A DNA stretch of 64,000 nucleotides, from NCBI GenBank assembly GCA_963765575.1, contig CAVXWZ010000005.1, positions 1 to 64,000 of the forward strand, read 5' to 3'. The stretch is from an uncultured cyanobacterium. Its GTDB lineage: Bacteria; Cyanobacteriota; Cyanobacteriia; PCC-6307; Cyanobiaceae. The notes beneath the pieces were generated by a model that was not told the origin of the DNA, made no database searches, and saw only the letters and a program-made list of their open reading frames with translations. How positions within the stretch are numbered: the stretch's first letter is position 1; every line of letters starts with the position of its first letter. The position numbers were made by a program, and so were the translations under genes. Shown here piece after piece: positions 381 through 18,038 of this stretch.

Positions 381-442
381 GGCACGGCAAACCGGGGACC
401 CGAAGGTAACGGACACCCCCCAGCTCGCCACGGGGTGGGGGG

Positions 443-2032: not shown

Positions 2033-2059
2033 GGGCGCTGGGCGGGCCGGCGTTGAAGC

Positions 2060-3199
2060 CTAGGGGGGGCCCTCGGGGGGCTCGACTGCCGCGCCGCTGA
2101 GGGCTGCCAGCAACCGCTCACCCTCAGGTCCGCAGGCCCGCACCCGGCGCTGGCGATCGAACAGCACCGCCCCCACCGCCAGCGGACCGGGCTGGCCGTG
2201 GCTGCGCAGGTAGGCCTGACTGCGGTGCTCGATCGCCGTGGCGATCCGGGTCCGCAACCGCTCCGCCAGCGCGGGCTGCTGCTGCTCCAGCGCGCTGAGG
2301 GCCGTGTCGACGCTGGTGGCGGCATGCAGCCGGGCCAGCTCCACCCCACCCAGGCCCTCCAGCGCCGCCAGGGCGGTGAGCACCTCGGCGCGGCCATCGG
2401 CCAGGTGGTGGTGGGTGTGGAAGATGCCACCGGCCAGCTTGATCAGCTTGCCCTGGACGCCGAACAGCAGCAGCCGCCGCACCCCGGCCTCGGCGGCCGC
2501 CACCAGCAGGGGCCCGAGCCAGTTGCCGGCCTTGAGCAGCAGGGCAGCCGGCAGACCCAGTCGCGGCGCCAGGTCGAGGCCGTTCTCGCCGATCACCAGC
2601 ACCAGATCACCGCCGAAGTCGGCCGCGGCGGCGCGCTGGCGCAGGCTGGCCAGGGCCGCCTGCAGCTGCTCGGGGGCGGCGCTGCGCTGCACCTCGGCCT
2701 GGGTGCCGATCAGGGCCAGCCCCTCCACCACGCCGAAGGCGGCGTTGCTGGTGCGTTCCGCCAGGCGGCGGCCCTCCGGAATCGTGAGCTCCAGCCCCAG
2801 CCGCCGCCCGGGCGGCACCAAGGGCCGCAGGTTCCACTCCAGCAGCTGGCGCGCGTAGCCCGACAGGCAGGCCTCACCGCTGGCCTCGATCACCCCCACA
2901 CCGGCGCCGGCCCGCAGCTCCAGCCAGGGGCCGTCACCTTCAAGCCAGCGCGCCTGCACCCACAGGAGCAGATCCCGGGTGAGGTCGAGCACCCCTGCGC
3001 CGGGGTCGCAGCGGGCCATGGCCAGGGCGCTGCCATCGCCCAGGGGAGCCGCCGCCTCGATCGGGATCAAGCGGGGCTCGGCGCCGGTATCCAGCCGCAG
3101 GGGCTGCTCCGGCGCCACCGGCTCCCGCAGCAGCCCCTGCAGGGCCGCCCGCGCCGCTGCGGCGCACCACACCGGCAGGGTGTAGCCGCCCTCAGCCAT
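2060..3199 (-). CDS. cbiD: Cobalt-precorrin-5B C1-methyltransferase
   Basis: GYTLPVW, TSNAAFGVVEGLALIGT, GKLIKLAGGIFHTHHHLAD motifs; adjacent to guaA as in picocyanobacteria. Confidence 0.93.
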   Translation of the reverse strand: MAEGGYTLPVWCAAAARAALQGLLREPVAPEQPLRLDTGAEPRLIPIEAAAPLGDGSALAMARCDPGAGVLDLTRDLLLWVQARWLEGDGPWLELRAGAGVGVIEASGEACLSGYARQLLEWNLRPLVPPGRRLGLELTIPEGRRLAERTSNAAFGVVEGLALIGTQAEVQRSAAPEQLQAALASLRQRAAAADFGGDLVLVIGENGLDLAPRLGLPAALLLKAGNWLGPLLVAAAEAGVRRLLLFGVQGKLIKLAGGIFHTHHHLADGRAEVLTALAALEGLGGVELARLHAATSVDTALSALEQQQPALAERLRTRIATAIEHRSQAYLRSHGQPGPLAVGAVLFDRQRRVRACGPEGERLLAALSGAAVEPPEGPP

Positions 3200-3314
3200 C
3201 GATGCGGTGTGCGCTGGTCATTGGGGGGCTGGGTGGACTGTTTTTTATGGTGGTCGACTGTGGCGCCGCCGGGCGCACCCTCCAACACTCCGCCTCGCCC
3301 CCGCCACCTCCACC

Positions 3315-4467
3315 ATGCAGGACAAGCTCGCCCTGATGATTCCCGGGCCCCACGCCGGTGCCCGAAACGATCCTGCAGGCCATGGGTCGCCACCCGATCG
3401 GCCACCGCAGCGCCGACTTCCAGGCGATCGTGCGGCGCACCAGCGAGCAGCTCAAGTGGCTGCATCAGACCAGCGGCGATGTGCTGGTGATCACCGGCAG
3501 CGGCACCGCCGCCATGGAGGCGGGGATCATCAACGTGCTGAGCCGGGGTGAGCGGGTGCTCTGCGGCGACAACGGCAAGTTTGGTGAGCGCTGGGTGAAG
3601 GTGGCGCGGGCCTACGGGCTGGACGTGCAGGTGATCCAGGCGGAGTGGGGCCAGCCGCTCGATCCCGAGGCCTTCCGCGCCGCCCTGGAGGCCGACACGG
3701 CCAAGGCGATCAAGGCCGTGATCCTCACCCACTCGGAAACCTCCACGGGCGTGATCAACGACCTGGAGACCATCGCCCGCCATGTGCGGGCCCACGGCAC
3801 GGCCCTGGCGATCGCCGACTGCGTCACCAGCCTGGGAGCCTGCAACGTGCCCATGGACGCCTGGGGCCTCGACGTGGTGGGCTCGGGCTCCCAGAAGGGG
3901 TACATGATGCCGCCGGGCCTGGCCTTCGTGGCCATGAGCGAGCGGGCCTGGCAGGCCGCCAAGGGCTCCGACCTGCCGAAGTTCTATCTCGACCTGGCCA
4001 AGTACCGCAAATCCGCCAAGGCCGACAGCAACCCCTTCACGCCGGCCGTGAACCTCTACTTCGCCCTGGAGGCGGCGCTGACGATGATGCAGGCGGAGGG
4101 GCTGGAGGCGATCTTCAGCCGCCATGCCCGCCACCGCGGCGCCGTCCAGGCCGGCATGACGGCCATGGGCCTGCCGCTCTATGCCGCCGCCGGCCACGGC
4201 AGCCCGGCGATCACGGCGGTGGCCCCGCAGGGCGTCGACGCCGAGACCCTGCGCAAGCGGGTGAAGGAACGCTTCGACATCCTGCTGGCCGGGGGCCAGG
4301 ACCACCTCAAGGGCAAGGTTTTCCGCATCGGCCACCTGGGCTTCGTGTGCGACCGGGATGTGCTCACCGCCGTGGCCGCCATCGAGGCCGTCGTGCAGGA
4401 GCTGGGGCTGCACAGGGCAACCCCTGGTGCCGGGGTCGCCGCCTGCGCCGCCGCCCTCGCGGGCTAG
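3315..4467 (+). CDS. Class V PLP aminotransferase (serine-pyruvate/alanine-glyoxylate; 'soluble hydrogenase small subunit' family); +1 C frameshift at ~3350
   Basis: MQDKLALMIPGP joins (T)PVPETILQAM after removing one C; HSETSTG, DCVTSLG, GSQKG (PLP lysine), RIGHLG. Confidence 0.92.
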
Positions 4468-4478
4468 GGTTCAACAAC

Positions 4479-4512
4479 TAAGGAACCGCAGACGCGCAGT
4501 TCCTTATGTTTT
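4479..4512 (+). terminator. Stem-loop with T-rich tail between aminotransferase and tRNA (possible intrinsic terminator)
   Basis: TAAGGAAC (4479-4486) pairs with GTTCCTTA (4499-4506), followed by TGTTTT. Confidence 0.5.
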
Positions 4513-4584
4513 GCGGGTGTAATTCAGTGGTAGAATGTCAGCTTCCCAAGCTGAACGTCGCCGGTTCGAGTCCGGTCACCCGCT
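4513..4584 (+). tRNA. tRNA-Gly (anticodon CCC), CCA not encoded
   Basis: Acceptor GCGGGTG/CACCCGC, anticodon arm TCAGC-TTCCCAA-GCTGA, T-loop GTTCGAGTC, discriminator T. Confidence 0.97.
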
Positions 4585-4587
4585 TTC

Positions 4588-4600
4588 AGTCCAGTCACCC
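4588..4600 (+). repeat. Imperfect direct repeat of tRNA-Gly 3' end
   Basis: AGTCCAGTCACCC (4588-4600) vs AGTCCGGTCACCC (4569-4581), 12/13 identical. Confidence 0.6.
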
Positions 4601-4727
4601 CACTGCAGGACACCCCACGGCAGATCACATTGAGGTGGATGGTCTGCCGCCTGGCAGGCTCGGCTACCGATCCTCGGCGTGCTGCTCCCCGCAGACTCCG
4701 GCCTGGAGGTGGTGACAGGGGCACGGC

Positions 4728-4755
4728 ACAAAACCGATCACGGCACCGGCGGGTA
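4728..4755 (+). promoter_or_regulatory. Degenerate copy of candidate ECF promoter upstream of the sigma gene
   Basis: ACAAAACC-N16-GGTA, same spacing as the exact copies at 7830-7857 and 10869-10896; ends 25 nt before ATG 4781. Confidence 0.4.
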
Positions 4756-4780
4756 TTTCCGACATGTCTCCCTCCCCGCC

Positions 4781-5371
4781 ATGGCTGTGACGGATCAGGA
4801 CCTGCCACCGCCGCCCGATGACCTGGCCGGCCTCTACGACGCCTACAGCCCCGCCGTCTACCGCCTGGCCCTGCGGCTCTGCCGGGAACCGAGCGCGGCG
4901 GCGGATCTGGTGCAGGACGTGTTCCTGCGCTACTGGCGCCAGGAGCGCTACGACCCCAAGCGGGGACCGGTGCTGGCCTACCTGCTGCTGCTCACCCGCT
5001 CGATGGCGATCAACCGCCTCAACCAGCAGCGCAACCGCTGGCAGCTGCTGCAGCGCTGGTCGACCCAGCTGCTGGGCGGGCACCAGCGCAGCCCCCACGA
5101 CTTGGCCGAACTGGGAGATCTGGGGGAGCGCATGCGCAGCGCCCTGGCCCGGATCAACCCCAACCAGCGCCAGGTGCTGGAGCTGGCCTACTACGAGGGC
5201 ATGAGCCAATCGGTGATCGCCGAGCACCTGCAGATCCCCCTGGGCACTGTCAAAACTCGCTCCCGCCAGGGTCTGCTGGCCCTGCGCGGTCTGCTGCTGG
5301 ATTTCGCCACCAACGCCCCCGACCCCCTCGCCATCCCCCCTGTTCTCCCGGATCGCCATGGCTGCCGCTGA
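4781..5371 (+). CDS. ECF sigma-70 factor (SigK-like)
   Basis: Region 2 LYDAYSPAVYRLA...ADLVQDVFLRYW...YDPKRG; region 4 VLELAYYEGMSQSVIAEHLQIPLGTVKTRSRQGL. Confidence 0.93.
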   Translation: MAVTDQDLPPPPDDLAGLYDAYSPAVYRLALRLCREPSAAADLVQDVFLRYWRQERYDPKRGPVLAYLLLLTRSMAINRLNQQRNRWQLLQRWSTQLLGGHQRSPHDLAELGDLGERMRSALARINPNQRQVLELAYYEGMSQSVIAEHLQIPLGTVKTRSRQGLLALRGLLLDFATNAPDPLAIPPVLPDRHGCR

Positions 5372-6095
5372 CCCCCGCCGCGATGAACTGCTGGCTGGCT
5401 ACGTGCTCGGCGACCTCGATGAACGCGAGCGTGAGCAGCTGCGGGACGCCCTTGCCAGCGACCCCTCCCTGCAGCGCCAGCTCGATGAGTTGCGCCTCAC
5501 CCTGGAACTGCTGCCGCTGGCGCTGCCCGATGCCGCGCCGCCGCGGCGGCTGCGCCAGCGGCTGCTGCGGGCCGAACAGCAGCGCCAGCCCCAGGCCGGC
5601 GTTGAGGACAGGCCGCCATGGCGACCCCGGCCCGGCCAACTGGGCCTGGCGGCCATGGCCTGCGCCCTGGTGGCCCTGGGGGGTCAGGTGGTGCAGTTGC
5701 GCGGTGAGATGGCCGACCTGCGGCGGAATCCAGCGGCCCCCGCAGCCACCGCTCTGGAGCCGGCCCTGCAGGCCAGCCGCACCCTGCCGTTGCGGGGCAC
5801 CGATGGCCATCCACAGCTCTCCGGCCAGGTGGTGGTGAACCCGGGCCAGACCCACAACCTGCTGGTGATCAGCGGGCTGCCGCCGGCACCGCCCAGCCAT
5901 GTGTACCGCCTGTGGGCCAACGTGGGCGGCGCCACCAAGGGCTGTGTGCGCTTCGTGCCCAACGCCGCCGGGCGTGTGGAGATGCCCATCCCCAGCCACC
6001 CCTCCAGCGAGGCCCGGTCCCTGAGCATCACCCTTGAACCCCTGCGCACCGATGGCACCAAACCCGATGGCCCCCAGCTGCTCACCAGTGTCTGA
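5358..6095 (+). CDS. RskA-type transmembrane anti-sigma factor
   Basis: N-terminal ELLAGYVLGDLD, PPRRLRQRLL, one TM segment, C-terminal LPPAPPSHVYRLW and ITLEP...PDGP; overlaps sigma stop. Confidence 0.88.
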   Translation: MAAADPRRDELLAGYVLGDLDEREREQLRDALASDPSLQRQLDELRLTLELLPLALPDAAPPRRLRQRLLRAEQQRQPQAGVEDRPPWRPRPGQLGLAAMACALVALGGQVVQLRGEMADLRRNPAAPAATALEPALQASRTLPLRGTDGHPQLSGQVVVNPGQTHNLLVISGLPPAPPSHVYRLWANVGGATKGCVRFVPNAAGRVEMPIPSHPSSEARSLSITLEPLRTDGTKPDGPQLLTSV

Positions 6096-6118
6096 GCCCG
6101 CCGCCGGGGCCACGCCCC

Positions 6119-7058
<940 letters not shown>

Positions 7059-7754
7059 TCAGGGCACCGTCGGACAGGTCTGGGTCTCGAAGTCGCAACT
7101 GAAGACCGCCGGCTTCTGCCACTGCAGGGGAATTTCCAGGAGATCGCGGGGACCGCTGATGCCCTGGGCCAGCAGCACCACCGCCGCCAGCACGCTGGCG
7201 GAGACGTGCAGCCGCCGCCAGCGCAGGCTGCGCTGGGTTTCCGGCTTGGCCGCCATGGCGAACAGCAGCAGGCCGCAGAGGCCGATGCCGCCCCAGAAAT
7301 GGGACTGCCAGAACGCCGGCTCCAGGGGATTGTCGCCCAGGCGCCAGACCTCCGGCTGGAGGCCGAGGCCGATCAGACCGGCCCAGCAGAGCAGGGCGAA
7401 GCAAGCCCGATAGACGGGAAGGCGAGCCCGCCAGAAGGCGATGAAGGCCACCGCCGTGACCCCTGTCACCAGGGCCAGCAGCAGCAGCCTGGTGGTGCCG
7501 CCCGCAAAGTCGGCGAACGGCACCTTGGTGAGGATCACCACCACCAGCGCCACCAGCACGGCAAACACCACGCTGCCCGTGAGCCAGCGGCCCAGGTCGG
7601 CGTGGTCACGGCCGCTGGTCACCGGCAGCTTGCTCTGTCCCAGGCGCCGCTGCCGGGCCTGGATGCCCAGCCGCACCACCATGCCCACCAACGGGTAGAT
7701 CACCACCACGGCCAGCACCGGGTGCAACAGCCAAAGCCAATCAACCCTCTGCAT
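7059..7754 (-). CDS. DUF4079-like multi-pass membrane protein with TM histidines
   Basis: About 6 hydrophobic helices; LLHP, DHADLG, SHFWGG, RLHVS; C-terminal RDLLEIPLQWQKP..CDFETQTCP; GGAG before ATG 7754. Confidence 0.75.
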   Translation of the reverse strand: MQRVDWLWLLHPVLAVVVIYPLVGMVVRLGIQARQRRLGQSKLPVTSGRDHADLGRWLTGSVVFAVLVALVVVILTKVPFADFAGGTTRLLLLALVTGVTAVAFIAFWRARLPVYRACFALLCWAGLIGLGLQPEVWRLGDNPLEPAFWQSHFWGGIGLCGLLLFAMAAKPETQRSLRWRRLHVSASVLAAVVLLAQGISGPRDLLEIPLQWQKPAVFSCDFETQTCPTVP

Positions 7755-7829
7755 CGCCGGCGCTCCATCGCGTGACTTCAACCATGGCGCCCATGGGCAT
7801 CTCTGTCATCCAATCAGCACTGGTCTCAG

Positions 7830-7857
7830 TACCGGGCAGTCGATCGATCGGATTGCC
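7830..7857 (-). promoter_or_regulatory. Candidate ECF promoter GGCAATCCG-N13-CCGGTA upstream of DUF4079 gene
   Basis: Minus strand reads GGCAATCCGatcgatcgactgcCCGGTA; arms and spacing identical to 10869-10896. Confidence 0.65.
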
Positions 7858-7874
7858 GAGGACAGGGCCGCGGC

Positions 7875-8759
7875 TCAGGGGCTCTGGCGGTTCAGGTCCC
7901 AGCTGTAGGGGAGGTAGGCGAGGCGGTAGTCGCCCCCCAGCAACAGCTCTCGCTCGCTGGCGGGGCGATGGCGGGCGATGAAGTGCAGCACCGCACTGTT
8001 GTCGGCGTGGCCCGGCACCGGGACCGCCTCGGGGTCGGCACGCGGCCAGTCCTCGGCAAACCACTGAAAGATCGCCGAGATGGCCACCTCGCCCGCCTCC
8101 CGGTCAATGCGCAGTCCCACGTCACTGGCCAGCCAGCGCTTGGTCTGATCCTCCAGCTGCTCCTCCAGCTGCCGAACCCGTGAAGGCCTCCGCCGCAGCG
8201 GCGGGCAGCTGATCGCCGCGCACACCAGGGCGGCGTGGATGCGCGGTTCGTTGTACTCGCGCCGCAGGATCTGATGCTCGATCTCATCGAGGGTGAGGCG
8301 CTGACCCAGCAGCGGGTGGCGGCGGAATTTCCACACGCCGGGAATCGCCTTGATGCTCGGCCGGATCGGATCGTGATCGATGATCGAGCGCAGGGTCAGG
8401 GCGTTGTAGGCGTTGATCAGCAGGGCGATCTGATCAGCCTCGGGCCAGGCGGCGACGTGCTCGGGTGGCAGCTCGGCCAGCGCCTGCAGGTAGGCATCGA
8501 GCTGGGCCGGATCGCGCTGCAGGGCGCCGTAATCCACCTGACCGCGATCATCCACCACCGCCTGCAGCACGGCCGTGAAGGGGGCTGGATCCAGGGGAGG
8601 CTGGGGGGCCGTGGCCGCCGCCGTGGTGCCATGGCCGTCCAGGGGCAGCAGGTCCTGCGGCCCGTTGGCGCAAGCGGCGGCGCTGAGCAGCAGCAACCCG
8701 CAGAGCAGGGCCAGCGGGGCGCGGCAACGGGCAGGGGGCACGGCACGGGCAGGGGACAT
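7875..8759 (-). CDS. DUF547 domain lipoprotein
   Basis: Lipobox-like LLLLSAAAC; VDYGAL, LINAYNALT, TLDEIEH, EPRIHAALVCAAISCP, YSWDLN; local compensated frameshift ~8172-8192 (RPSRVR where EAFTGS is expected). Confidence 0.85.
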   Translation of the reverse strand: MSPARAVPPARCRAPLALLCGLLLLSAAACANGPQDLLPLDGHGTTAAATAPQPPLDPAPFTAVLQAVVDDRGQVDYGALQRDPAQLDAYLQALAELPPEHVAAWPEADQIALLINAYNALTLRSIIDHDPIRPSIKAIPGVWKFRRHPLLGQRLTLDEIEHQILRREYNEPRIHAALVCAAISCPPLRRRPSRVRQLEEQLEDQTKRWLASDVGLRIDREAGEVAISAIFQWFAEDWPRADPEAVPVPGHADNSAVLHFIARHRPASERELLLGGDYRLAYLPYSWDLNRQSP

Positions 8760-8788
8760 GGCGTGGAGGCCAGCGTCGGGTGCGGGGT

Positions 8789-10105
8789 CTACAGCTCAAC
8801 AGCTCGATCGGTTCGCTCGCGGCCCGGCGGCCCCAGGCTCAACAGGAGTCCCACCAGCAGGGGCAGCCACAGCAGCAGCCGCTCAGCGCTGGTGAGCTGC
8901 CAGTCCGGCAATCGAGAGGGCAGCACGAAGTACACGAAGGCCGACAGGCTCACCAGCCGCGCCCCCCAGTTCTGGCTGGGCACGGCAAAGGGCATCAGCC
9001 AGATGAAATACCAGCCGTGCACCACCGGTGAGAGCAGCAGCACCGCCACCAGGTAGCGCCAGGCGAACACCCCCAGCCGCTCGCCGCCGCGCAGCAGCAG
9101 GGGCACCAGCACCGCCAGCAGCAGCAGGCCATGCACGGCGTTGCTCTGCAGCGTCCAGGGCCAGAGCTGGCCGATCCAGTGCGGCATCCACGCGGCGCTG
9201 CGGCCCAGGCGCATGAACGTGGAGCCGGTGGGCAGCAGCGGACAGGTTGCGCTGCGGCAGAAGACCAGCGCCCCCAGCAGCAACGGCGCCAGCCCCAGCA
9301 GCAGGCCGCTGAGCACGGGCCCGGGCCGCTGAAACCGCCGCCAACGGCTGATGGCCCGCTGCAGCAGCAGCGGCAGGGTGATCCACTTGAGGGCCACGCT
9401 CAGGCCCAGCAACAGGTCGACCCAGGCCTGGGAGCGGGGGCCCTGCAGCCGGGGATCGCGCTCCGCCAGCAGCCAGCCCCCCACCAGCGGCAGCAGGAAC
9501 CAGCTGTCGTAATGGCCGCCGCCACTGATGCCGTAGATCACCAGCGGATTCCAGCCATAGAGCGCCGCCCGCGCCGCCCCGAAGCGGCCGGCGAGCAACG
9601 CGCAGATCGCCAGATCGGCCGCCAGGAAGGAGAGCTTGAACACCACCACCTGGGGGGCCAGCGCGGCATGCAGCCGGAACAGCAGCTGGGCCAGGGGCGG
9701 GTAGATGGCCGTGGTGTCGGGATGGTTGATCTGCGGCCACCAGGCCAACCGCAATCCGGCCAGCACGGGAGCCTCCGGAGGCAGGTGGTAGGGGCTGAAC
9801 CCCTGCAGCTGGATCAACCCTTCCCAGAGGTAGCGCCAGATGTCATCGCCGGGCTCCATCGCCAGCAGCAGCAGGCGGGTGAGCACGGCCACGGTCCAGA
9901 ACAGCGTCCGGGGGATCGCCGGCAAGGTCCAGGAGAGGGCGAAGCCCGCACCCATCACCGCCACCGCCCTCCAGAACGGCAGCAGCTGGGCCGGGTCGAA
10001 CAGATCGCCGTGGGGTCGCAGCAGCAGCGCCCCAGCAATCAGCAGCAGGGCACTGGCCAGCAGCCGCAGCCGGCGCAGCTGCCGGCGGGTGGGGGTCAGG
10101 TCCAT
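8789..10105 (-). CDS. Integral-membrane GT-C fold glycosyltransferase (GT87/DUF2029-like)
   Basis: GDDIWRYLWEG, INHP..AIYPPLAQ, WNPLVI, GHYD, VHGWY motifs; about 10 TM helices; overlaps upstream GT2 stop. Confidence 0.75.
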   Translation of the reverse strand: MDLTPTRRQLRRLRLLASALLLIAGALLLRPHGDLFDPAQLLPFWRAVAVMGAGFALSWTLPAIPRTLFWTVAVLTRLLLLAMEPGDDIWRYLWEGLIQLQGFSPYHLPPEAPVLAGLRLAWWPQINHPDTTAIYPPLAQLLFRLHAALAPQVVVFKLSFLAADLAICALLAGRFGAARAALYGWNPLVIYGISGGGHYDSWFLLPLVGGWLLAERDPRLQGPRSQAWVDLLLGLSVALKWITLPLLLQRAISRWRRFQRPGPVLSGLLLGLAPLLLGALVFCRSATCPLLPTGSTFMRLGRSAAWMPHWIGQLWPWTLQSNAVHGLLLLAVLVPLLLRGGERLGVFAWRYLVAVLLLSPVVHGWYFIWLMPFAVPSQNWGARLVSLSAFVYFVLPSRLPDWQLTSAERLLLWLPLLVGLLLSLGPPGRERTDRAVEL

Positions 10106-10827
10106 CGCCGCAGCAGCAGACGGCCGAGGGTGGAGAGGATCACACTGCCGGCCCGGATGCTGGCCCCCCAGCGTCCGGAGATCTTCGAGGTCCCGGCCAG
10201 GCGCGGCCGGTGGGCGATGGGGATCTCGCGGATGCGCAGACCGAGCTCGAGGGCCCGCACCTGCATCTCCAGGGTCCAGCCGTAGCCGCGGTCGCGCAGG
10301 GCCATGGCCTCGAAGGCCGAGCGGCGCAGCAGCCGCAGCGGGCCCAGGTCGCGGTAGCGGCACCCCCAGCCGAGGGCGATCAAGCCGGTGGCCAGGCGGT
10401 TGCCCCAGCGCTGCAGGGGGGTGAGGGCGGCGCGCCCCGCGGCGGTGGCGGTGCGATCGCCCAGCAGCAGGTCGTGGTGGCTCAGCAGCGCCAGGAAAGC
10501 GGGCAGTTCCTCGATCGGATCACCGCCGTCGCCATCGCAGAACAGCAACCAGCGCACCGCCGGGTCGAGGTTGCGGCAGCCGCGCCAGCAGGCCCTGCCG
10601 TAGCCGGGGCGGGGTTCGCTGAGCACCTCCGCCCCCAGCTCCCGGGCCAGGGCCGCGCTGCCATCGCGGCTGCCGTTGTCCACCACCCGGATGCGGCACA
10701 GCCCCTGGGCGCGCAGCTGGCCGAGCACATGGGCGAGCGTGGACTCCTCGTCGCGCACCGGGATCACCACCTGGATCGCATCCAGCGCTGTCGCCGGCGG
10801 CTGGGGTTCCGGTTGATCGAGGACCAC
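10096..10827 (-). CDS. Family 2 glycosyltransferase (polyprenol-phosphate sugar synthase-like)
   Basis: VVIPVRDEE, VVDNGSRD, GYGRAC, FCDGDG, DLGPLR, YGWTLEMQ, GTSKISG. Confidence 0.88.
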   Translation of the reverse strand: MVLDQPEPQPPATALDAIQVVIPVRDEESTLAHVLGQLRAQGLCRIRVVDNGSRDGSAALARELGAEVLSEPRPGYGRACWRGCRNLDPAVRWLLFCDGDGGDPIEELPAFLALLSHHDLLLGDRTATAAGRAALTPLQRWGNRLATGLIALGWGCRYRDLGPLRLLRRSAFEAMALRDRGYGWTLEMQVRALELGLRIREIPIAHRPRLAGTSKISGRWGASIRAGSVILSTLGRLLLRRWT

Positions 10828-10868
10828 GGCCGATCCCTCCAGGACGTACCACTCCCCACACCCTGCCG

Positions 10869-10896
10869 GGCAATCCGGGACGGGGCTTCACCGGTA
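10869..10896 (+). promoter_or_regulatory. Candidate ECF promoter GGCAATCCG-N13-CCGGTA upstream of DedA-reductase/arsM unit
   Basis: GGCAATCCGggacggggcttcaCCGGTA, ends 22 nt before ATG 10919. Confidence 0.65.
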
Positions 10897-10918
10897 GCCG
10901 CTCTGAAGAGCGTGTCCC

Positions 10919-13123
10919 ATGGCCCCACCGCAGATCCCGCCAACCGGCCGGACGCCCCGCTGGCGCCAGTTGCTGCTGATCGCCGCCATCGCCCTGGCCG
11001 TGGCCCTGTTCTTCGCCCTGGGGCTGCACCGGCAGCTCAACCTCGCGGCCCTGCAACGGGCCCATGGCGCCCTGCTGGAGTGGCGGGCCCGCTCGCCCCT
11101 GCTGGTGGCGGGGGCGTACCTGCTGGCTTACGTGCTGGTCACGGCCCTGTCGCTGCCGGGAGCGGCGGTGCTCACCCTGGCTGGCGGGGCGATCTTCGGC
11201 CTGGGGCTGGGCACCCTGCTGGTGTCGTTCGCCTCCAGCGCCGGCGCCCTGCTGGCCTTCCTGGCGGCCCGCACCCTGCTGCGTGATCTGGTGCGGCGGC
11301 GCTTCGGGCGGCAGCTGGCAGCGATCGAGGCGGGCGTGGAGCGCGATGGGGTGCTCTACCTGCTCAGCCTGCGGCTGGCGCCGGTGGTCCCGTTCTTTCT
11401 GATCAACCTGCTGATGGCGCTGACGCCGATGCGGGCCGTCAGCTTCTACCTCACCAGCCAGATCGGCATGCTGCCCGGCACGCTGGTGTACGTGAACGCC
11501 GGCACCCAGCTGGCCCAGCTGCGCGGCCTCGGCGGCATCCTCAGCCCGCCGTTGCTGGGCTCGCTGCTGCTGCTGGCCCTGTTCCCCTGGCTGGCGAAAG
11601 CGGCCACGCGCCGCTGGCAGATCTGGCGGCTCTACCGCCCCTGGCGGCGCCCGCGCCGCTTCGATCGCAACCTGATCGTGATCGGCGCTGGGGCGGCGGG
11701 GCTGGTGACCTCCTACATCGCCGCCACCGTGAAGGCGCGGGTGACGCTGGTGGAACGGGGCGAGATGGGGGGCGACTGCCTCAACACCGGCTGCGTGCCC
11801 AGCAAGGCGCTGATCAGCTCGGCGCGGCTGGCGGCGCGCATGCGCCGGGCCGACCGCTACGGCCTCGAGCCCGTGGAACCGCAGCTGAGCGTGCGCCAGG
11901 TGTTCGCGCGCGTGGCCGCCAAGGTGGAGGCGATCGCGCCCCACGACAGCGTCGCGCGCTACGAGGACCTGGGGGTGGAGGTGTTGCGCGGCCAGGCCCG
12001 CCTGCTCGATCCCTGGACCGTGGCGATCCAGGACCATCAGGGTGCGGAGCGGCGGCTGACGGCACGGTCGATCGTGCTGGCCACAGGCGCTCAGCCGATG
12101 GTGCCGCCGTTGCCCGGCATCGATCAGGTTCCCCTGCTCACCAGCGAGACGGTGTGGAGCTGGCTGGGCAGCTGCGCCCTGGAGCGGCCGCGGCTGGTGG
12201 TGCTCGGGGGCGGGCCGATCGCCTGCGAGCTGGCCCAGGCCCTGGCCCAGCTGGGCCTGCCGATCACCCAGATCCAGCGCAGCGGGCGCCTGCTGAAGAA
12301 GGAAGACGCCGATGTGGCGGCCGAGGTGCAACTGGCCCTGGAGGCCGACGGCGTGACCCTGCACACCGGCGCCCAGGTGCTCGGCTTCGAGCGGGCACCC
12401 GGCCCCCAGGGGGCGGTGTCGGTGCTGGTGCAACGGGGACAGCAGCAGCAGCGCATCGCCTGCGACGCCGTGCTCTGTGCCCTCGGCCGCCGCGCCCGGC
12501 TCACGGGCTACGGCCTCGAGGAACTCGGCATCCCCACCGGCGCCACCGTCACCACCAATGCCTTCCTGCAGACCAATTACCCCAACATCTATGCGGCCGG
12601 CGATGTGGCCGGGCCCTTCCAGTTCACCCACACCGCCGCCCACCAGGCCTGGTATGCCGCCGTCAATGCCCTGTTCGGCAACCTGCGCTCCTTCAAGGCC
12701 GATTACCGCGTGCTTCCCCGCACCACCTTCACCGAACCAGAGGTGGCCACCGTGGGACTCACCGAGGCCGACGCCACAGCGCAGCAGGTGGCGGTGGAGG
12801 TGACCCGCTTCCCCCTGCACGAGCTCGACCGCGCCATCGTGGAGAGTGCCGAGCAGGGCTTCGTGAAGGTGCTCACCCAGCCCGGCAGCGACCGCATCCT
12901 CGGCGCCACGATCGTGGGTGAGCACGCCGGCGAACTCCTGGCCGAGTTCGTGCTGGCCATGACGTGGGGTCTGGGGTTGAGCAAGATCTTCGCCACCATC
13001 CATGCCTACCCCACCTTCACCGAGGCCAACAAAGCCGCCGCCGCCAGCTGGAAGAAACAGCGGGTGCCCCACCATCTGATGCCCTGGCTGCGCCGCTACC
13101 ACGCCTGGCGGCGGCATGGCTGA
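10919..13123 (+). CDS. Fusion: TVP38/TMEM64 (DedA superfamily) membrane domain + FAD-dependent pyridine nucleotide-disulfide oxidoreductase
   Basis: N-terminal SLPGA..LRLAPVVPFFLINL..SQIGMLPGT; then GAGAAG, GGDCLNTGCVPSK, GGGPIACE, AAGDV, HAYPTFTE. Confidence 0.9.
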   Translation: MAPPQIPPTGRTPRWRQLLLIAAIALAVALFFALGLHRQLNLAALQRAHGALLEWRARSPLLVAGAYLLAYVLVTALSLPGAAVLTLAGGAIFGLGLGTLLVSFASSAGALLAFLAARTLLRDLVRRRFGRQLAAIEAGVERDGVLYLLSLRLAPVVPFFLINLLMALTPMRAVSFYLTSQIGMLPGTLVYVNAGTQLAQLRGLGGILSPPLLGSLLLLALFPWLAKAATRRWQIWRLYRPWRRPRRFDRNLIVIGAGAAGLVTSYIAATVKARVTLVERGEMGGDCLNTGCVPSKALISSARLAARMRRADRYGLEPVEPQLSVRQVFARVAAKVEAIAPHDSVARYEDLGVEVLRGQARLLDPWTVAIQDHQGAERRLTARSIVLATGAQPMVPPLPGIDQVPLLTSETVWSWLGSCALERPRLVVLGGGPIACELAQALAQLGLPITQIQRSGRLLKKEDADVAAEVQLALEADGVTLHTGAQVLGFERAPGPQGAVSVLVQRGQQQQRIACDAVLCALGRRARLTGYGLEELGIPTGATVTTNAFLQTNYPNIYAAGDVAGPFQFTHTAAHQAWYAAVNALFGNLRSFKADYRVLPRTTFTEPEVATVGLTEADATAQQVAVEVTRFPLHELDRAIVESAEQGFVKVLTQPGSDRILGATIVGEHAGELLAEFVLAMTWGLGLSKIFATIHAYPTFTEANKAAAASWKKQRVPHHLMPWLRRYHAWRRHG

Positions 13124-13162
13124 GCCCCACGAAGCACTCACCTCCATCCCCCGACCATCTCC

Positions 13163-14230
13163 ATGACGACCTCCACCGACCCCAGCCTGGGCGTGCAGGA
13201 GTACTACGGCGCCACCCTCAGCAGCAGCGCCGACCTGCGCACCAGCGCCTGCTGTGATGCCAGCAGCGTGCCCGCCGCCCTGCGCCCCCTGCTGGCGCGT
13301 ATTCACCCCGAGGTGCTGTCGCGCTACTACGGCTGCGGGCTGGTGGTGCCGCCGCTGCTGGAGGGCCTGCGGGTGCTGGATCTGGGCTGCGGCAGCGGCC
13401 GCGATGTGTATCTGCTGGCCCAGCTGGTGGGGGCCGGCGGCGCGGTGGTGGGCGTGGACATGACGCCGGAGCAGCTGGCGGTGGCCCGGCGGCACCAGCG
13501 GCACCACGCCGAACAGTTCGGCTTCGCCAACGTGGAATTTCTGGAGGGCCGCATCGAGCAACTCGAGCAGTTGCCCCTGGAGCCCGGCAGCTTCGATCTG
13601 GTGATCTCCAACTGCGTGGTCAACCTCTCGGCCGACAAGCTGGCCGTGCTCCAGGGGGTGCGGCGGCTGCTCAAGAGCGGCGGTGAGTTCTATTTCGCCG
13701 ACGTCTACGCCGACCGGCGGGTGCCGGAGGAGCTGCGCCACGATCCGGTGCTCTACGGCGAATGCCTCAGCGGCGCCCTCTACTGGAACGACTTTCTGCG
13801 CCTGGCCCGCCAGGCCGGCTTCGCCGATCCGCGGCTGGTCAGCGACCGGCCCCTGGAGATCACCGATCCGGATCTGGCGGCGCGCACCGGGGCGATCCGC
13901 TTCGCCTCCGCCACCTACCGGCTGTTCCACATCCCCGAGCTGGAGGATGCCGGCGAAGACCACGGCCAGACGGTGACCTACCGCGGCACGATCGCCGAAC
14001 ACCCCCACGCCCTGCCCTTCGACAAGCACCACCACATCGAGACGGGCAAGCCGTTTGCGCTGGACGGCAACACCGTCCGCATGCTGGCGGGCAGCCGGCT
14101 GGCGCCCCATTTCAGCTTCATCGGCGATTTCAGCCGTCACTACGGGCTGTTCGCGGGCCAGGCCTCGGCCACGCCCTTCGACGGGCCCTCGACTGCCGCC
14201 GCCCCCAGCACCGGCCGCAGCTGCTGCTGA
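13163..14230 (+). CDS. arsM: ArsM/AS3MT-like As(III) SAM methyltransferase
   Basis: VQEYYG..SACC, YYGCG, LDLGCGSGRD, GVDMT, ISNCVVNL, YGECLSGAL, C-terminal CC. Confidence 0.85.
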   Translation: MTTSTDPSLGVQEYYGATLSSSADLRTSACCDASSVPAALRPLLARIHPEVLSRYYGCGLVVPPLLEGLRVLDLGCGSGRDVYLLAQLVGAGGAVVGVDMTPEQLAVARRHQRHHAEQFGFANVEFLEGRIEQLEQLPLEPGSFDLVISNCVVNLSADKLAVLQGVRRLLKSGGEFYFADVYADRRVPEELRHDPVLYGECLSGALYWNDFLRLARQAGFADPRLVSDRPLEITDPDLAARTGAIRFASATYRLFHIPELEDAGEDHGQTVTYRGTIAEHPHALPFDKHHHIETGKPFALDGNTVRMLAGSRLAPHFSFIGDFSRHYGLFAGQASATPFDGPSTAAAPSTGRSCC

Positions 14231-14249
14231 GGACAGGCGGCGCCCCTGC

Positions 14250-16451
14250 TCAGCCCACCAATGCAGGAGCAGCGGGCTGGGGCTCCAGCTGGATGGGCAG
14301 GGCGCTGCGCTGGAACCAGCCCTGCTGGGGCAGGGGGCGCACCAGCGCGAGCAGCACCGCCAGCAGGGCACGGGGCTCGTTGGGGGCCTGGCGAGTCGGC
14401 CACAGGGCCGGCTGGCGGTAGAGCAAATGCTGCAAGCGCTCACGCCCGCCAGCGGATAGGCCCAGCCAATGGGCCCCCAGCCGCACGCGGACGCCCCGGC
14501 GCTTGAGCTGGCAGCCGAGCAGCGGCCAGTACTCCCCTGCCAGGGCCGCTCCACCGACACTCAGGGGCTGGCCCAGATCCGGCGCCCAGCCCGGCCGATC
14601 CGGGGCGTTCCAGGCCAGCTCCAGGCCCTGTTCACTGATCGCCGTGAGCCGGGCCGGCCAGCGCTGGCCCTGCTGCTCCAGCCACACCTGGCAGGCCAGG
14701 GGCCGGAACCACACCTCCAGGCCGGAACTGGGCCGGTCCCAGCAGGCCCGCAGGGCAGCCAGCAGGCTGAGGATCGCCAGGCCACTCCACACCAGGGGCA
14801 GGGCCGGGGCCGTGCTGCGCAGCAGCAACTGGGCATTGAACAGTTGCAGGGCCAGCAGGACCACGAGGGGGATCACCAGGTGGGGGGCGGGGCCAGGGCG
14901 TTGGCGGGTGAAGGTCTTCGGGGTGGCACGGAAACAGCGCGGACGACCCAGCAGGGTGGCCACCACCGCCTGCAGCAGGGGCACCAGAAACACCCAGCGG
15001 TAGAGCTCCGGCAGCAGGGCGGAGCGAGAGCCGTGGCTGAACCAGCGCACCAGCAGCAACTGGGCGGCCGCCAGCGGCAGAGCCACCGTCAGCCAGCCCT
15101 GGTCGACCAGCAGCAGCGGCGGCACCCCCAGGATCCCGAAGCTGAGCGGCAGCAGCAGCAGCAACAGCTGGGGGAACACGTTCAGCCAGTGCAGGATGCC
15201 CTCCAGATAGGCCAGCCGCTGCCATGGCGACAGCCCGGCGATGCGCAACGGACTGGCCGTGGTGCGCAGGGTCTGCAGGGTGCCACTGGCCCAGCGGCCG
15301 CGCTGGCGGGCCATCGCCTCGAGGCTGGGGGGCACCAGACCGGCACTGAGTTTCTCGTTGAGATAGACACAGCGGTGACCCGCCGCGGCGATGCGGATGC
15401 CCGTGGCCAGGTCTTCCGAGGGGGTCTGGGTGTCAAAGCCACCCACCTGCAGCAGGGCCCGACGGCGCATCACAAAGGAGGTGCCGGCGCACACCACCGC
15501 CCCCACGCCCTGGCGGGTGGGCTCGATCCAGCGGTAGAAGTACTCCTCATCGGGCATCAGCCAGCGCTCCAGGCCCAGGTTGCGGATCACCGGATCGGCA
15601 TTCATGTAGCTCTGGGGCGTCTGCACCAGGCCCACCCGCAAATCCTCGAACAGGCCCACGGTGCGAGCCAGAAACCCCCGCTGGGGGATCACATCGGCGT
15701 CGAACACCGCCAGCAGATCTCCCTCCAGCTCGTCCAGCACGTGGTTGAGGTTGCCGGCCTTGGCCTGACTGCGGTCCGCTCGGCTGCGATAGCGGCAGCC
15801 CAGTCGGCGGCAGAGGGCGGCCAGCTCCGGACGGGGACCGTCATCGAGCAGCCACACCGTCAGACCTGGGTGGTCGAGGGCCAGACAGCCCCGCAGGCAG
15901 CGCTCCACCAGGTCCAGGGGTTCCCCGCAGCAGGGCACCAGCACATCCACAGCCGGCAGGTGAGCGGGATCCTGCAGGCGCCGCCGGCGCAGCCTCAGGG
16001 CGGCCTGCTCGGCCTCATGCCCCACCGGCGGCTCGCGAAACCAGGCCAACACCAGCTGCAGCAGGCCATGGCCGAGCAGGAGGCATTCGGCCGCCAGCAT
16101 CGCCAGGCTGATGGCGGCGGCCAGCGGCGTGGCCAGGTTGAGGGTGCTGCTGCCGCGCCACACCAGGTAGCTGATGCTGAGCAGCGCGAGCACCGCAATC
16201 GCGCTGCGGCGCGCGGCCATGGGTTGGTCGGCTTCGGGCCGGCGGCGCAGCCAAAGCGCCCAGCCCAGCACCAGCAGCAGGGGCAGGGCCATCAGCGGAC
16301 CAGCACCAGCAGCGGCCTCTCCGGGCCCGCGAACCACAGCCATGGCTGCCAGCGGCACCAGGGCCGCAAGCCAGAAGCCCAGCCCCTGCTGGCGAGGCCC
16401 GGCCCGGAGATTTCCAGGCCGCGCGACCGCAGCGATTGGTTCGCACACCAT
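14250..16451 (-). CDS. Cellulose-synthase-like processive GT2 (BcsA-like) with degenerate PilZ-like C-terminus
   Basis: DVLVP, DDG, KAGNLN, FDAD, QTPQ, SED, QRGRW (QxxRW), FRATPK, flanking TM helices; start uncertain. Confidence 0.85.
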   Translation of the reverse strand: MVCEPIAAVARPGNLRAGPRQQGLGFWLAALVPLAAMAVVRGPGEAAAGAGPLMALPLLLVLGWALWLRRRPEADQPMAARRSAIAVLALLSISYLVWRGSSTLNLATPLAAAISLAMLAAECLLLGHGLLQLVLAWFREPPVGHEAEQAALRLRRRRLQDPAHLPAVDVLVPCCGEPLDLVERCLRGCLALDHPGLTVWLLDDGPRPELAALCRRLGCRYRSRADRSQAKAGNLNHVLDELEGDLLAVFDADVIPQRGFLARTVGLFEDLRVGLVQTPQSYMNADPVIRNLGLERWLMPDEEYFYRWIEPTRQGVGAVVCAGTSFVMRRRALLQVGGFDTQTPSEDLATGIRIAAAGHRCVYLNEKLSAGLVPPSLEAMARQRGRWASGTLQTLRTTASPLRIAGLSPWQRLAYLEGILHWLNVFPQLLLLLLPLSFGILGVPPLLLVDQGWLTVALPLAAAQLLLVRWFSHGSRSALLPELYRWVFLVPLLQAVVATLLGRPRCFRATPKTFTRQRPGPAPHLVIPLVVLLALQLFNAQLLLRSTAPALPLVWSGLAILSLLAALRACWDRPSSGLEVWFRPLACQVWLEQQGQRWPARLTAISEQGLELAWNAPDRPGWAPDLGQPLSVGGAALAGEYWPLLGCQLKRRGVRVRLGAHWLGLSAGGRERLQHLLYRQPALWPTRQAPNEPRALLAVLLALVRPLPQQGWFQRSALPIQLEPQPAAPALVG

Positions 16452-16614
16452 GGCAGGAGTGGAGAGGGTCGGCGAGCAAGCTCAGGTCACAGTCTGTGAT
16501 GCAAACTCTGACGCCGCGATTGACGACGGTTGCCTCCTGACTACCGCTCAGACCCACAAGCGGATTGAGGGGAGCGGAAGCTGGACGGGATCAGCCAATG
16601 GCAGCCCAGGCGCC

Positions 16615-16866
16615 TCAGGAGCGCGGCTTGATCACCTGCAACACCTGGGGGCCGGTGGCAGCCAGACGGCGCTCACAGTCCAGCGCCGCCAGGATCCCCC
16701 GAGCACACGGCTCGAGCTCGCCAGCCTCAGCGGCGGCCCTGGCCGCGCCATCCAGGGCAACGATGCGCGCCCGCAGCTCAACCTTGAGGTCGCGCTGATG
16801 AGCCTGGCCGCTGAGACGGGCCTGGTCGGCGAGGGTGGAAGGCCTGGCGGGCAGGGTTGCCGTCAT
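16615..16866 (-). CDS. Small conserved cyanobacterial hypothetical protein
   Basis: 83-aa ORF with ATG; C-terminus ILAALDCERR...GPQVLQVIKPRS resembles picocyanobacterial small proteins (from recall). Confidence 0.65.
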   Translation of the reverse strand: MTATLPARPSTLADQARLSGQAHQRDLKVELRARIVALDGAARAAAEAGELEPCARGILAALDCERRLAATGPQVLQVIKPRS

Positions 16867-17172
16867 ACCGGTGTGGGAAAGGATTGGACAAGGGACCGTG
16901 GGGCGGAGTTGAAGTGAGCTGCTGCGATGGCCTGAAGCACCCTGGCTGTGATCTCGAGTCTGTCATCCAGTGGCTGTCAACACGCGTCGGACGTCAGCAT
17001 GAGGAACGCTGCCTCAAAAAGCTGCAATACCAGGTGGGTTTCAGCTGATGCGGGAGCTCACTGGAGACCATCAGAATCTCCCTACGACGACAACAATGAG
17101 GTGAAAAGTCTCGACGTTGTCGCTGACTGGTGTACCGCCACGGTTTGGCGAGGAGGGCGACGCCTCAAACGC

Positions 17173-17460
17173 TCAGGTACCAGGTTCTTCGCAATCCCCC
17201 CCCAGGGCTGCAATCTGATCCCGCAGGTCGCGTTCCCGCTGCCGATCTCCACGGGTGAGAGCAACGGCCAGGGCGAACTGAAGTTTTTCACGCTGATGAT
17301 CACCGTCCTCGCTGCTGGCGGCGATGGGCGGGAAGGGGCGCTTCGCTGGAGCCGAGCGGTGATGGGACGTCCTGGGAGAGCCGGTGACGGCAGCAGCTGA
17401 GGCTGAGGCTGGCTGCGGCTGACGGGGAGTGCGCGGGGCTGGGGAAAGCCATGAGCTCAC
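17173..17460 (-). CDS. Small hypothetical protein (start uncertain)
   Basis: C-terminus EKLQFALAVALTRGD...IAALGGDCEEPGT resembles a picocyanobacterial small-protein family (from recall). Confidence 0.55.
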   Translation of the reverse strand: MSSWLSPAPRTPRQPQPASASAAAVTGSPRTSHHRSAPAKRPFPPIAASSEDGDHQREKLQFALAVALTRGDRQRERDLRDQIAALGGDCEEPGT

Positions 17461-17533
17461 TTTCTTCCCATTTTGGCATCACCTACCGGCAAAGGCGAGG
17501 AGGTCGCCATTGGGTCAGGGGACGGTACCCGGA

Positions 17534-17911: not shown

Positions 17912-18038
17912 GGCGGTGCGATGCGCAGGAGCCGATGACAACACATCCCCACACCGTGCGCACGTCGGGGTTTGCCAGCCCCCAGCAACTGCCCTGAGGG
18001 CAGCTGCCGCCTTCTCTGGCGATGATGGGGCCATGGCC

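Follow-up and report, generated by a model that had tools for sequence, protein, structure and literature searches.

Algae and cyanobacteria are the main sources of arsenosugars and arsenolipids. ArsM methylates As(III), and the radical SAM enzyme ArsS adds a 5′-deoxyadenosyl group. In the literature passages cited here these reactions are the first steps of arsenosugar synthesis and the only ones assigned, and the two genes are co-transcribed in Synechocystis (PMC8552651; PMC12159101; bioRxiv 2022.09.23.509062). Removal of adenine has been proposed as a later step (PMC10456119), and arsS mutants are described as not arsenite-sensitive (bioRxiv 2022.09.23.509062). Here we describe nine genes that place arsS and arsM beside an extracytoplasmic function (ECF) sigma factor, an RskA-type anti-sigma factor, a glycosyltransferase pair (GT2 and a GT87-like GT-C enzyme), a DedA-flavin reductase fusion, a predicted DUF547 lipoprotein and a DUF4079 membrane protein (Table 1). 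They lie near the start of contig C5 (CAVXWZ010000005.1) of an uncultured cyanobacterium of the family Cyanobiaceae (GCA_963765575.1; 2.71 Mb in 11 contigs), a picocyanobacterium of the Cyanobium type to judge from the names of homologues. The window is the first 64,000 nucleotides of this contig. Judging from sequence comparison, the ECF/RskA pair is probably the hub of an envelope regulon for metal and thiol-oxidation stress that includes the arsenosugar genes.

Other parts of the locus also have described relatives. According to the passages cited, ECF18 and ECF19 sigma factors use RskA-like anti-sigmas and SigK-type sigmas carry a conserved Cys pair (PMC7826278); the ECF18 promoter consensus is xGCATCC / xxCGTATx (PMC13492112, Table 4). 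Bufferins chelate copper and, in Caulobacter, belong to the Cu(II)-induced copper-stress regulon of SigF (PMC11626156). Lipid-linked periplasmic glycosylation is described as a three-component system of GtrB, GtrA and a GT-C enzyme (PMC11127046), and DedA proteins translocate undecaprenyl phosphate (PMC11474028).

The sigma factor and its promoter-like motif

The sigma factor scores 91.5 against TIGR02937 (cut-off 42.9) and is the only match in the genome. The anti-sigma passes PF10099 (49.6 against 29.4) and NF052375 (107.2 against 100), has one predicted transmembrane (TM) segment at residues 94-112, and keeps His181 and Cys196 of its C-terminal part in 18/18 sequences. As in SigK-RskA, a single-TM anti-sigma of the RskA type thus lies directly downstream of the sigma gene. 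The conserved Cys pair of SigK was not found in the sigma factor: one Cys is kept in 16/16 sequences and the second, C-terminal one is unconserved, so there is no evident redox disulfide pair.

Aligned DNA upstream of ECF genes yielded the motif (C)AAWCCGATC-N12-GGTA (short form AWCCG-N15-GGTA), which resembles the ECF18 consensus of PMC13492112. It stands upstream of 22 of the 25 ECF genes outside the window, and the three misses are distant cyanobacterial ECFs. Within the window AAWCCG-N15-GGTA occurs at 4731 (+), 7830 (-), 10872 (+) and 16542 (-), with none in 100 shuffles. A second position weight matrix (PWM), built from 87 sites in other genomes and leaving out the window, gave six genome-wide matches of at least 18 bits. 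Five of these fall in 4729-16568, where each is followed after 20-88 nt by a start on its own strand; no clear target gene could be assigned to the sixth. The site before DUF4079 is the top PWM match genome-wide. The motif was not found before this genome's acr3, arsR, gap-arsJ, pstS, TIGR04282/83, guaA, cbiD or aminotransferase genes. A sigma-70 promoter scan returned 0 sites and terminator-like sites were at chance level, and a looser pattern, VMWCCG-N14-SGGTA, matched no more often than its reversed control in five genomes and was uninformative.

Two further sites lie elsewhere in the genome. One is upstream of a bufferin operon (G000:C5:168602-170723, L189) made up of a DUF2282 precursor gene, a BufB over the NF050167 cut-off and a BufC-like gene. 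The other lies 23 nt upstream of the start of an exported MsrA with an N-terminal signal-like segment (G000:C1:227423-228161, L190).

In related loci the motif follows gene order (counts are from rows filtered by identity and de-duplicated). It precedes the DedA-reductase in 30/34 loci, DUF547 in 31/32, TIGR04282 in 9/9, GT2 in 21/62 and arsS in 17/55. Genes that do not lead a unit rarely have it (arsM 1/46, GT87 0/53, rskA 0/23), and altered spacers of 13, 14, 16 and 17 gave one match in total. arsS is preceded by the motif only in loci where it leads, and in three loci where GT2 leads and the reductase is internal (L169, L174, L181) the motif stands before GT2, with none before the reductase. 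In ECF-less genomes no arsS carries the motif (0/11 loci), and its density there is 1 match in 165 kb (11 loci), against 59 matches in 16 loci of ECF-bearing genomes (294 kb). Where a motif-led arsS lacks an adjacent ECF gene, a related ECF was found elsewhere in 5/5 genomes tested, and all three of those unlinked ECF loci that were fetched carry the motif. Two held-out genes behave alike. Exported msrA reaches at least 10 bits in 7/8 same-genus loci and 0/3 distant ones, and bufA does so in 4/4 loci with full upstream DNA, one further locus being cut by a contig end; the background at that threshold is 54/21,494 windows. Relatives also have the motif before DM13 and MsrPQ-like genes, and some copies of locus genes far from an ECF keep it (GT2-GT87-DUF547 in L092 and L094; the reductase in L197, L198 and L201). 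A first-pass annotation made from the sequence alone had proposed that the locus answers an extracytoplasmic signal through the anti-sigma; a conserved, spacing-specific, promoter-like motif before the leading genes supports control by the ECF factor.

A second ECF-RskA paralogue (60-64% identity; L099, L207-L209) has the same motif and sits among EamA, DM13, MsrPQ-like and ChrR-cupin genes.

Gene content points the same way as the motif. Among 31 same-genus genomes, 19 carry the ECF factor and 12 lack it; completeness is 94% or more in 9 of these 12. DUF547 is present in 18 of the former and none of the latter, GT87 in 17 vs 0, the reductase in 16 vs 0, exported MsrA in 7 vs 0 and BufB in 4 vs 0. 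The corresponding figures are 18 vs 11 for arsS and 17 vs 10 for arsM, and TIGR04282 is found in 30 of all 31. The comparison thus sorts the candidates for late arsenosugar steps into two groups: the first, TIGR04282, TIGR04283 and MtnP, goes with arsS, and the second, GT87, DUF547 and the reductase, with the sigma factor.

The regulon that we favour would work as follows. The membrane anti-sigma would release the sigma factor on an extracytoplasmic signal, probably damage by an oxidant or a thiol-reactive metal(loid); the sigma, once free, would transcribe the ECF-rskA-arsS, DUF4079, DUF547, DedA-reductase-arsM, bcsA-like, bufferin and exported msrA units. Methylation of As(III) by ArsM and addition of the 5′-deoxyadenosyl group by ArsS would give an arsenosugar precursor, with the later steps likely performed in trans by the genome's methylthioadenosine (MTA) phosphorylase and its TIGR04282/TIGR04283 proteins. 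The DedA-reductase, DUF547 and DUF4079 proteins may supply or relay thiol-reducing power, and bufferin would chelate metal and MsrA repair proteins. GT2 and GT87 would be co-regulated but stand apart from the arsenic chemistry, as a polyprenyl-phosphate-hexose pair by which some acceptor in the envelope is glycosylated; the bcsA-like protein may also belong to this glycosylation arm. Because of their company with bufferin and MsrA, the arsenosugar genes appear to answer general metal/thiol stress rather than arsenic alone. With a defined motif and only one cognate sigma/anti-sigma pair, the trigger of the pathway can be tested directly, and the module has cultured carriers in Synechococcus sp. 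WH 5701 and Cyanobium gracile strains.

Several observations count against such a regulon. The genome-wide number of motif matches is 12 at 15 bits and 6 at 18 bits, against 8-18 and 0-3 for shifted-spacer controls; this is not clearly above the controls, so the argument rests on placement and not on number. The second PWM and the [GA] relaxation were chosen after the sites of relatives had been seen. Upstream of GT2 in this genome the score is -5.3 and no intact motif remains: the alignment shows a remnant whose -35 part looks lost. With GT2 and TIGR04282/83 motif-free here, the regulon misses part of the inferred pathway in this genome. The motif is weak or absent before DUF4079 in 13/15 loci (present in 2/15) and at the unlinked copies L095, L199 and L200. 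Several relatives have TIGR04282 directly before GT2 under one motif, which fits the glycoconjugate pathway discussed below. A quick arsS tree shows about four changes of ECF presence, and kin genomes are not independent, so the co-occurrence is a pattern and not a statistic, and Fisher values overstate it. (The tree serves as a warning on independence only, and the 'noECF' labels of L133, L155 and the non-cyanobacterial rows are assumed.) The signal of SigK-RskA is itself stated as unknown in the passage cited (PMC7509140), and the signal here is inferred from regulon content only.

Other placements are mixed. Where GT2-GT87-DUF547 lies far from arsS (G002, G009, G012, G019), the motif is strong in two genomes, weaker in one and poor in one; before bcsA-like genes it occurs in 2/11 loci at 14 bits, with weaker matches in some relatives.

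Competing readings of the locus

The sugar-transfer genes could instead belong to one arseno-glycoconjugate pathway, in which ArsM and ArsS make an arsenic nucleoside and the TIGR04282 protein activates arsenoribose. GT2 would then load this sugar onto polyprenyl phosphate, to be flipped by the DedA domain and passed by GT87 to a lipid or glycan of the envelope, with DUF547 as a partner outside. The activity reported for DedA proteins (PMC11474028) would suit this scheme. A TIGR04282-like sequence, in some cases partial, lies between GT2 and the reductase in 8/30 same-genus arsS loci, immediately ahead of GT2 and co-directional with it; these genes bear the motif wherever it was scored, and in G015 and G028 (98-99% complete) the GT2-adjacent copy is the only TIGR04282 found. 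No TIGR04282 remnant was found in the window's own GT2-DedA gap. Four distant cyanobacteria (L075, L141, L143, L157) join GT2-GT87-DUF547 co-directionally to an NF038099 ArsM and arsS. Among the best 80 of 328 GT87 matches, arsS or arsM is nearby in 35/36 close loci; for distant loci the figure falls to 8/44 in the fetched DNA, and to 5/14 where there are at least 8 kb on both sides. The GT87 subfamily is found in 4/300 genomes of the phylum and 0/79 non-Cyanobium DedA-reductase loci (tblastn at 1e-6), the nearest GT87 structures transfer mannose or glucose, and the GT2 fails TIGR04283. The first-pass annotation had proposed that the membrane and periplasmic partners carry out the missing downstream steps of arsenosugar synthesis. 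Support for this is weak: 11 of the 12 ECF-less genomes retain arsS and 10 arsM, yet none of the 12 shows DUF547, GT87 or the reductase. We regard a single glycoconjugate pathway as unlikely. That a stress sigma switches on the full route, from the building of arsenoribose through polyprenyl loading and DedA flipping to GT87 attachment on an envelope lipid or glycan, seems less likely still. If true, that reading would fill in the late steps still missing from arsenolipid synthesis and place the deposition of arsenic in the envelope, alongside bufferin, within a general metal/thiol-stress defence.

A sensor specific for arsenic, in which the anti-sigma perceives As(III) or methylarsenite outside the cytoplasm and so sets off an ArsR-independent arsenic response, would explain why arsS and arsM both stand in motif-led units. 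An ArsC-like low-molecular-weight (LMW) reductase, below the TIGR02691 cut-off, follows arsS on the same strand in 5/30 same-genus and 16/36 close GT87 loci, and the RskA C-terminal part holds one invariant Cys. A single Cys makes a poor As(III) site, which counts against the idea, and acr3, arsR, gap-arsJ and pstS are motif-free. The regulon also takes in MsrA and a bufferin, a type induced by Cu(II) in Caulobacter (PMC11626156), with DM13 and MsrPQ-like genes added in relatives. We consider such a sensor very unlikely, and we hold an equally low opinion of hitchhiking. On that view an ECF-bearing accessory block came to lie next to housekeeping arsS and arsM genes where the genome is variable, and the genes share a motif through common descent and not through a shared function. 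Relatives do carry variable cargo at the tRNA-Gly site, the chromosomal place of the arsS locus differs within the genus, and the roughly four ECF changes on the tree suit this picture. Common descent fits poorly with a motif that stands before arsS or GT2 whichever leads, and that persists at msrA, at bufA and at gene copies unlinked to the ECF and remote from it. All five genomes tested that have a motif-led arsS without an adjacent ECF carry a related ECF elsewhere. Unrelated ECF types also flank ArsS modules in other phyla.

Genes of the locus and their setting

Table 1. Features at and around the ECF-linked arsenosugar locus (window coordinates).
Feature	Coordinates	Strand	Families and remarks
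guaA, cbiD, aminotransferase (3358-4467)			In this order ahead of tRNA-Gly(CCC)
tRNA-Gly(CCC)	4513..4584	+	Insertion hot spot; unoccupied in contig C5
Putative ECF promoter 1	4729..4757	+	Autoregulatory; ends 23 nt before ECF ATG; exact match 4731-4755; PWM 25.7, 18.1 bits
ECF sigma factor, 196 aa	4781..5371	+	TIGR02937, PF04542, PF08281; RskA-associated type
RskA-type anti-sigma	5358..6095	+	PF10099, NF052375; overlaps ECF gene
arsS radical SAM enzyme	6088..7058	+	TIGR04167, DUF3641; likely GTG start overlapping rskA stop
DUF4079 membrane protein	7059..7754	-	PF13301; about 5 TM
Putative ECF promoter 2	7828..7856	-	Before DUF4079; exact match 7830-7855; PWM 31.1, 25.8 bits
DUF547 predicted lipoprotein	7875..8759	-	PF04784; invariant CxxxxCP
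Putative ECF promoter 3	8788..8816	-	Before DUF547, overlaps GT87 gene end; TGTA variant; PWM 18.6, 18.4 bits
GT-C glycosyltransferase, GT87/DUF2029-like	8789..10105	-	DD motif 87-88
GT2, probable polyprenyl-phosphate glycosyltransferase type	10096..10827	-	PF00535
Putative ECF promoter 4	10870..10898	+	Before DedA-reductase-arsM unit; exact match 10871-10896; 21.0 bits
VTT/DedA membrane domain fused to class I flavin disulfide reductase	10919..13123	+	PF09335, PF07992, PF02852
arsM, putative As(III) methyltransferase	13163..14230	+	Algal ArsM structural type
BcsA-like membrane GT2	14250..16451	-	TIGR03030 301, below 699; beyond nine-gene span, motif-bearing
Putative ECF promoter 5	16540..16568	-	Before bcsA-like gene; exact match 16542-16567; PWM 19.0, 20.3 bits

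ArsS scores 454.9 against TIGR04167 (cut-off 300), with the CX3CX2C motif as CNQSCSHC and a Cys-rich DUF3641 C-terminus (PF12345, 193 bits). Of the 61 genomes searched, 53 have an ArsS over the cut-off; among same-genus relatives the count is 29 of 31. The likely GTG start is hidden because one C is missing from a C run near 6124 (arsS 5′ end, window 6088-6130), a likely assembly error: the arsS frame of relatives stays open back across the rskA stop, and the extra C is present in contigs from sequencing runs X2 and X4. Another likely error is a pair of compensating 1-nt indels in DUF547, near 8172 and 8191, by which about six residues are altered; protein alignments and the read contigs both point to it.

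ArsM aligns over its full length with solved structures (PDB 5EVJ, E 2.7e-108; the 4FS8 group, E 1.2e-90), and Cys30/31, 58, 151 and 201, which we take to be the catalytic set, are conserved. It falls below the arsenosugar-type model NF038099 (92.7 against 400; the cyanobacterial controls L073, L075, L141 and L157 score 558-574) and below PRK11873 (172.7 against 263), a model that spans a shorter subfamily. Cyanobacteria are described as holding more than one ArsM group (PMC5552862). Gly264, Asp301 and Gln333 replace the Cys residues of 21-22 of 23 aligned Cyanobium-type ArsMs, with the terminal Cys-Cys kept; Cys is likewise missing at these three positions from a solved algal ArsM.

The locus had been read in the first pass as a biosynthetic unit rather than a classical ars operon, and this agrees with the ArsS score and with an ars efflux operon that lies elsewhere and is motif-free. 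The absence of detoxification genes noted at the same time holds for the nine genes, which have no ArsR, Acr3 or ArsC family match, and fails for the genome, which has arsR, acr3 and gap-arsJ clustered on C1 and a gene of the ArsC/Spx family on C8. A classical resistance operon (arsR with arsB or acr3 and arsC at the locus) was accordingly rejected. The genome's one LMWPc gene was considered as an ArsC and looks like a protein tyrosine phosphatase instead. Other contigs hold candidates for later arsenosugar steps: C8 carries a TIGR04282-TIGR04283 pair and C1 another TIGR04283, the two families that NCBI curates as such candidates, and an MTA-phosphorylase homologue is on C4.

The GT-C protein of the window itself has no Pfam or NCBIfam match. 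Its homologues are named GT87/DUF2029, and PF09594 matches one of them (P0029, 25.7 against 25), with no match on three others or on the window protein. The structural model (pLDDT 88.8) resembles GPI-MT-I, ALG3, PimE and ALG6, all polyprenyl-phosphate-hexose transferases, at a Foldseek probability of 1.00 (best E 9.6e-4), and D88 of the acidic motif in the first outer loop is invariant in 24 rows, as the GT-C fold has it. The GT2 profile matches ArnC (E 2.2e-8 over residues 6-213) and DPMS (6.4e-5), with glucosyl-phosphoglycerate synthases equal over the N-terminal part; the single sequence gave no match in the PDB. GT2 remains below TIGR04283 (33.3 against 182; true members lie on C8 and C1) and NF041391 (66.1 against 375), and its DGD at 98-100 is invariant. 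The GT2 and GT87 genes overlap and are fused in many homologues. Together they resemble a polyprenyl-phosphate-hexose pair of envelope glycosylation and are probably not part of arsenic-sugar synthesis. GT87 had no match in PLSDB plasmids. Unlinked GT2-GT87-DUF547 sets (L092-L094) stand back to back with a cassette of methyltransferase, FAD oxidoreductase and type III polyketide synthase genes, a possible alternative acceptor pathway.

The DedA-reductase has its CxxxxC at 287-292. It was tried as a mercuric reductase and rejected, with 350.9 against the 454.45 of TIGR02053 (MerA) and no C-terminal CC. Foldseek matched nothing to the DUF547 model (pLDDT 91.1) at E ≤ 0.001, the sequence has no match in the PDB, and the best VIA Z, 6.0, falls on helical repeats; neither a new fold nor a function follows from this. 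In six same-genus loci (L197, L202-L206) the tail-to-tail neighbour of a TIGR04283-type gene is a second, shorter type of DUF547, which has no lipoprotein leader and no strong motif upstream; the one TIGR04283-type gene tested passes the cut-off. Four His of DUF4079 are conserved in 9-10 of 10 sequences, which may reflect a haem-binding, b561-like role. An Atlas search with DUF4079 returned DUF4079 clusters only. In five loci (L037, L049, L050, L058, L059; two partial) a peroxidase-related/CMD-like gene lies between DUF547 and DUF4079, where the window has none.

Family profile searches, with homologue names and the model for the GT-C, confirmed all nine genes in the order first described, and the neighbouring tRNA-Gly is present as well. 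Packing is tight, with intergenic gaps of -14 to +120 nt. The nine genes are split over three strand blocks (ECF-rskA-arsS, +; GT2-GT87-DUF547-DUF4079, -; DedA-reductase-arsM, +) and are therefore not the one operon that a single unit would imply. Nor can we retain the term island. The GC content of the nine-gene stretch is ordinary (0.711, vs 0.703 for the window and 0.690 for the genome), no integrase was found among the nine genes, and repeats of the tRNA 3′ end on contig C5 are limited to 12-nt chance matches. Contig C2:682328-686924 is 99.3% identical to window 1-4594 and diverges directly after tRNA-Gly, where C2 carries an insert; the window is thus the insert-free form, and a tRNA-anchored genomic island was rejected on all these grounds.

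The insert (C2:686925-699215; L087:6925-19216) is 12.3 kb long with a GC content of 0.585 and encodes an IS5-like transposase, a CBASS-type phospholipase (NF041079 over cut-off), MscS, a rhodanese and LysR. C2 is likely a second haplotype with the real insert, and it ends before any rejoining point; contigs C9, C10 and C11 likewise overlap others as strain variants. An Rfam scan of window 1-20000 found tRNA-Gly alone, and a tRNA-Ser(GCT) lies at 31435-31508. In relatives, guaA, cbiD or the aminotransferase is near arsS in 9/30 same-genus arsS loci, with the ECF present or not.

Recurrence and comparison with known systems

Recurrence of parts of this neighbourhood in other genomes had been expected, and it was found. 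Eight of the nine genes (all except DUF4079) occur together in 9/30 same-genus arsS loci and all nine in 7/30, with the same order in L038. The complete ECF-linked arrangement, put forward in the first pass as the new element, is therefore not unique to this genome. Synechococcus sp. WH 5701 and two relatives have ECF-rskA-arsS-reductase-arsM facing GT2-GT87-DUF547. Of 525 metagenome matches to the DedA-reductase 80 loci were kept, many on short contigs, and one is Cyanobium-like. The other 79 include DUF547 in 20, arsS in 14, TIGR04283 in 14, TIGR04282 in 13, an ECF in 10 and an ArsM-like gene in 7; the GT2/GT87 pair was found in none of these often short contigs (GT87 tblastn at 1e-6).

More distant sets come from RefSeq. 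An Acinetobacter plasmid carries arsS-TVP38/FAD reductase-DUF547-TIGR04283-TIGR04282-methyltransferase with mtnP and a sigma gene, and related sets occur in Burkholderia thailandensis, Hymenobacter, Thiodictyon and Pseudanabaena. In an unannotated plasmid stretch of Cupriavidus sp. KK10 (L185; NZ_CP073678.1 971377-992249), an ECF with an NrsF anti-sigma lies head to head with a one-strand run, bufA-bufB-bufC-doxX-gene-PiT-arsM-CMD-arsS-reductase-VTT-TIGR04283-TIGR04282-mtnP-radical SAM-DUF547. L236 has ECF-zf-HC2-arsS-reductase-bufABC-doxX. Pairs of the zf-HC2 or TIGR02943 type lie near the ArsS modules of L236, L272 and Burkholderia thailandensis, and Acinetobacter portensis has the sigma only. 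At least three unrelated sigma/anti-sigma types thus accompany ArsS modules. The enzymes here are of known families in an already annotated neighbourhood; what the locus would add is a putative, though well-supported, ECF regulon. We found no literature on ECF control of arsS or arsM, or on DUF547 or GT87 in arsenic metabolism, in a search that covered few subscription journals and no supplements; supplements to papers on ECF groups may bear on the promoter assignment.

A close annotated counterpart is the arsenosugar biosynthesis neighbourhood of NCBIfam (TIGR04167, TIGR04282, TIGR04283, TIGR04169 and NF038099; e.g., NZ_CP096121.1, NZ_CP013412.1 and NZ_CP112876.1). It shares with the window arsS, a TVP38/DedA-FAD reductase, DUF547, a methyltransferase and a nearby sigma-70/ECF gene. 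The present locus differs in having TIGR04282, TIGR04283 and mtnP outside the window and in adding the GT2-GT87 pair, DUF4079 and the RskA-type pair. With arsM-arsS of Synechocystis sp. PCC 6803 it has in common an ArsS over TIGR04167 and, at the same locus, a methyltransferase for As(III) that keeps the catalytic Cys residues. Here, however, the two genes stand in separate units and the ArsM is of the algal structural type and not NF038099; the literature passages on the Synechocystis genes describe no ECF control.

The sigma/anti-sigma pair is similar to SigK-RskA and ECF18-ECF19 in its RskA_C anti-sigma with one TM, in the gene overlap and in an autoregulatory motif near the ECF18 consensus. 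This likeness is one of motif consensus, gene layout and anti-sigma type. The pair differs in lacking the sigma Cys pair, in its GGTA -10 element and in its putative targets, the genes for arsenosugar synthesis, bufferin and MsrA. With GtrB/GtrA/GT-C systems and enzymes of the PimE/ALG3 type the locus shares a GT2, probably of the polyprenyl-phosphate type, whose gene overlaps that of a GT-C enzyme and is often fused to it in homologues, but there is no GtrA flippase among the nine genes and the DedA domain is a candidate only. As in the SigF-NrsF regulon of Caulobacter, in the passages cited (PMC11626156), a bufA-bufB-bufC operon appears to be under a stress ECF, and BufB passes NF050167 here. 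The two differ in that the sigma and anti-sigma belong to another family, no doxX was seen after bufC, and arsS and arsM are included.

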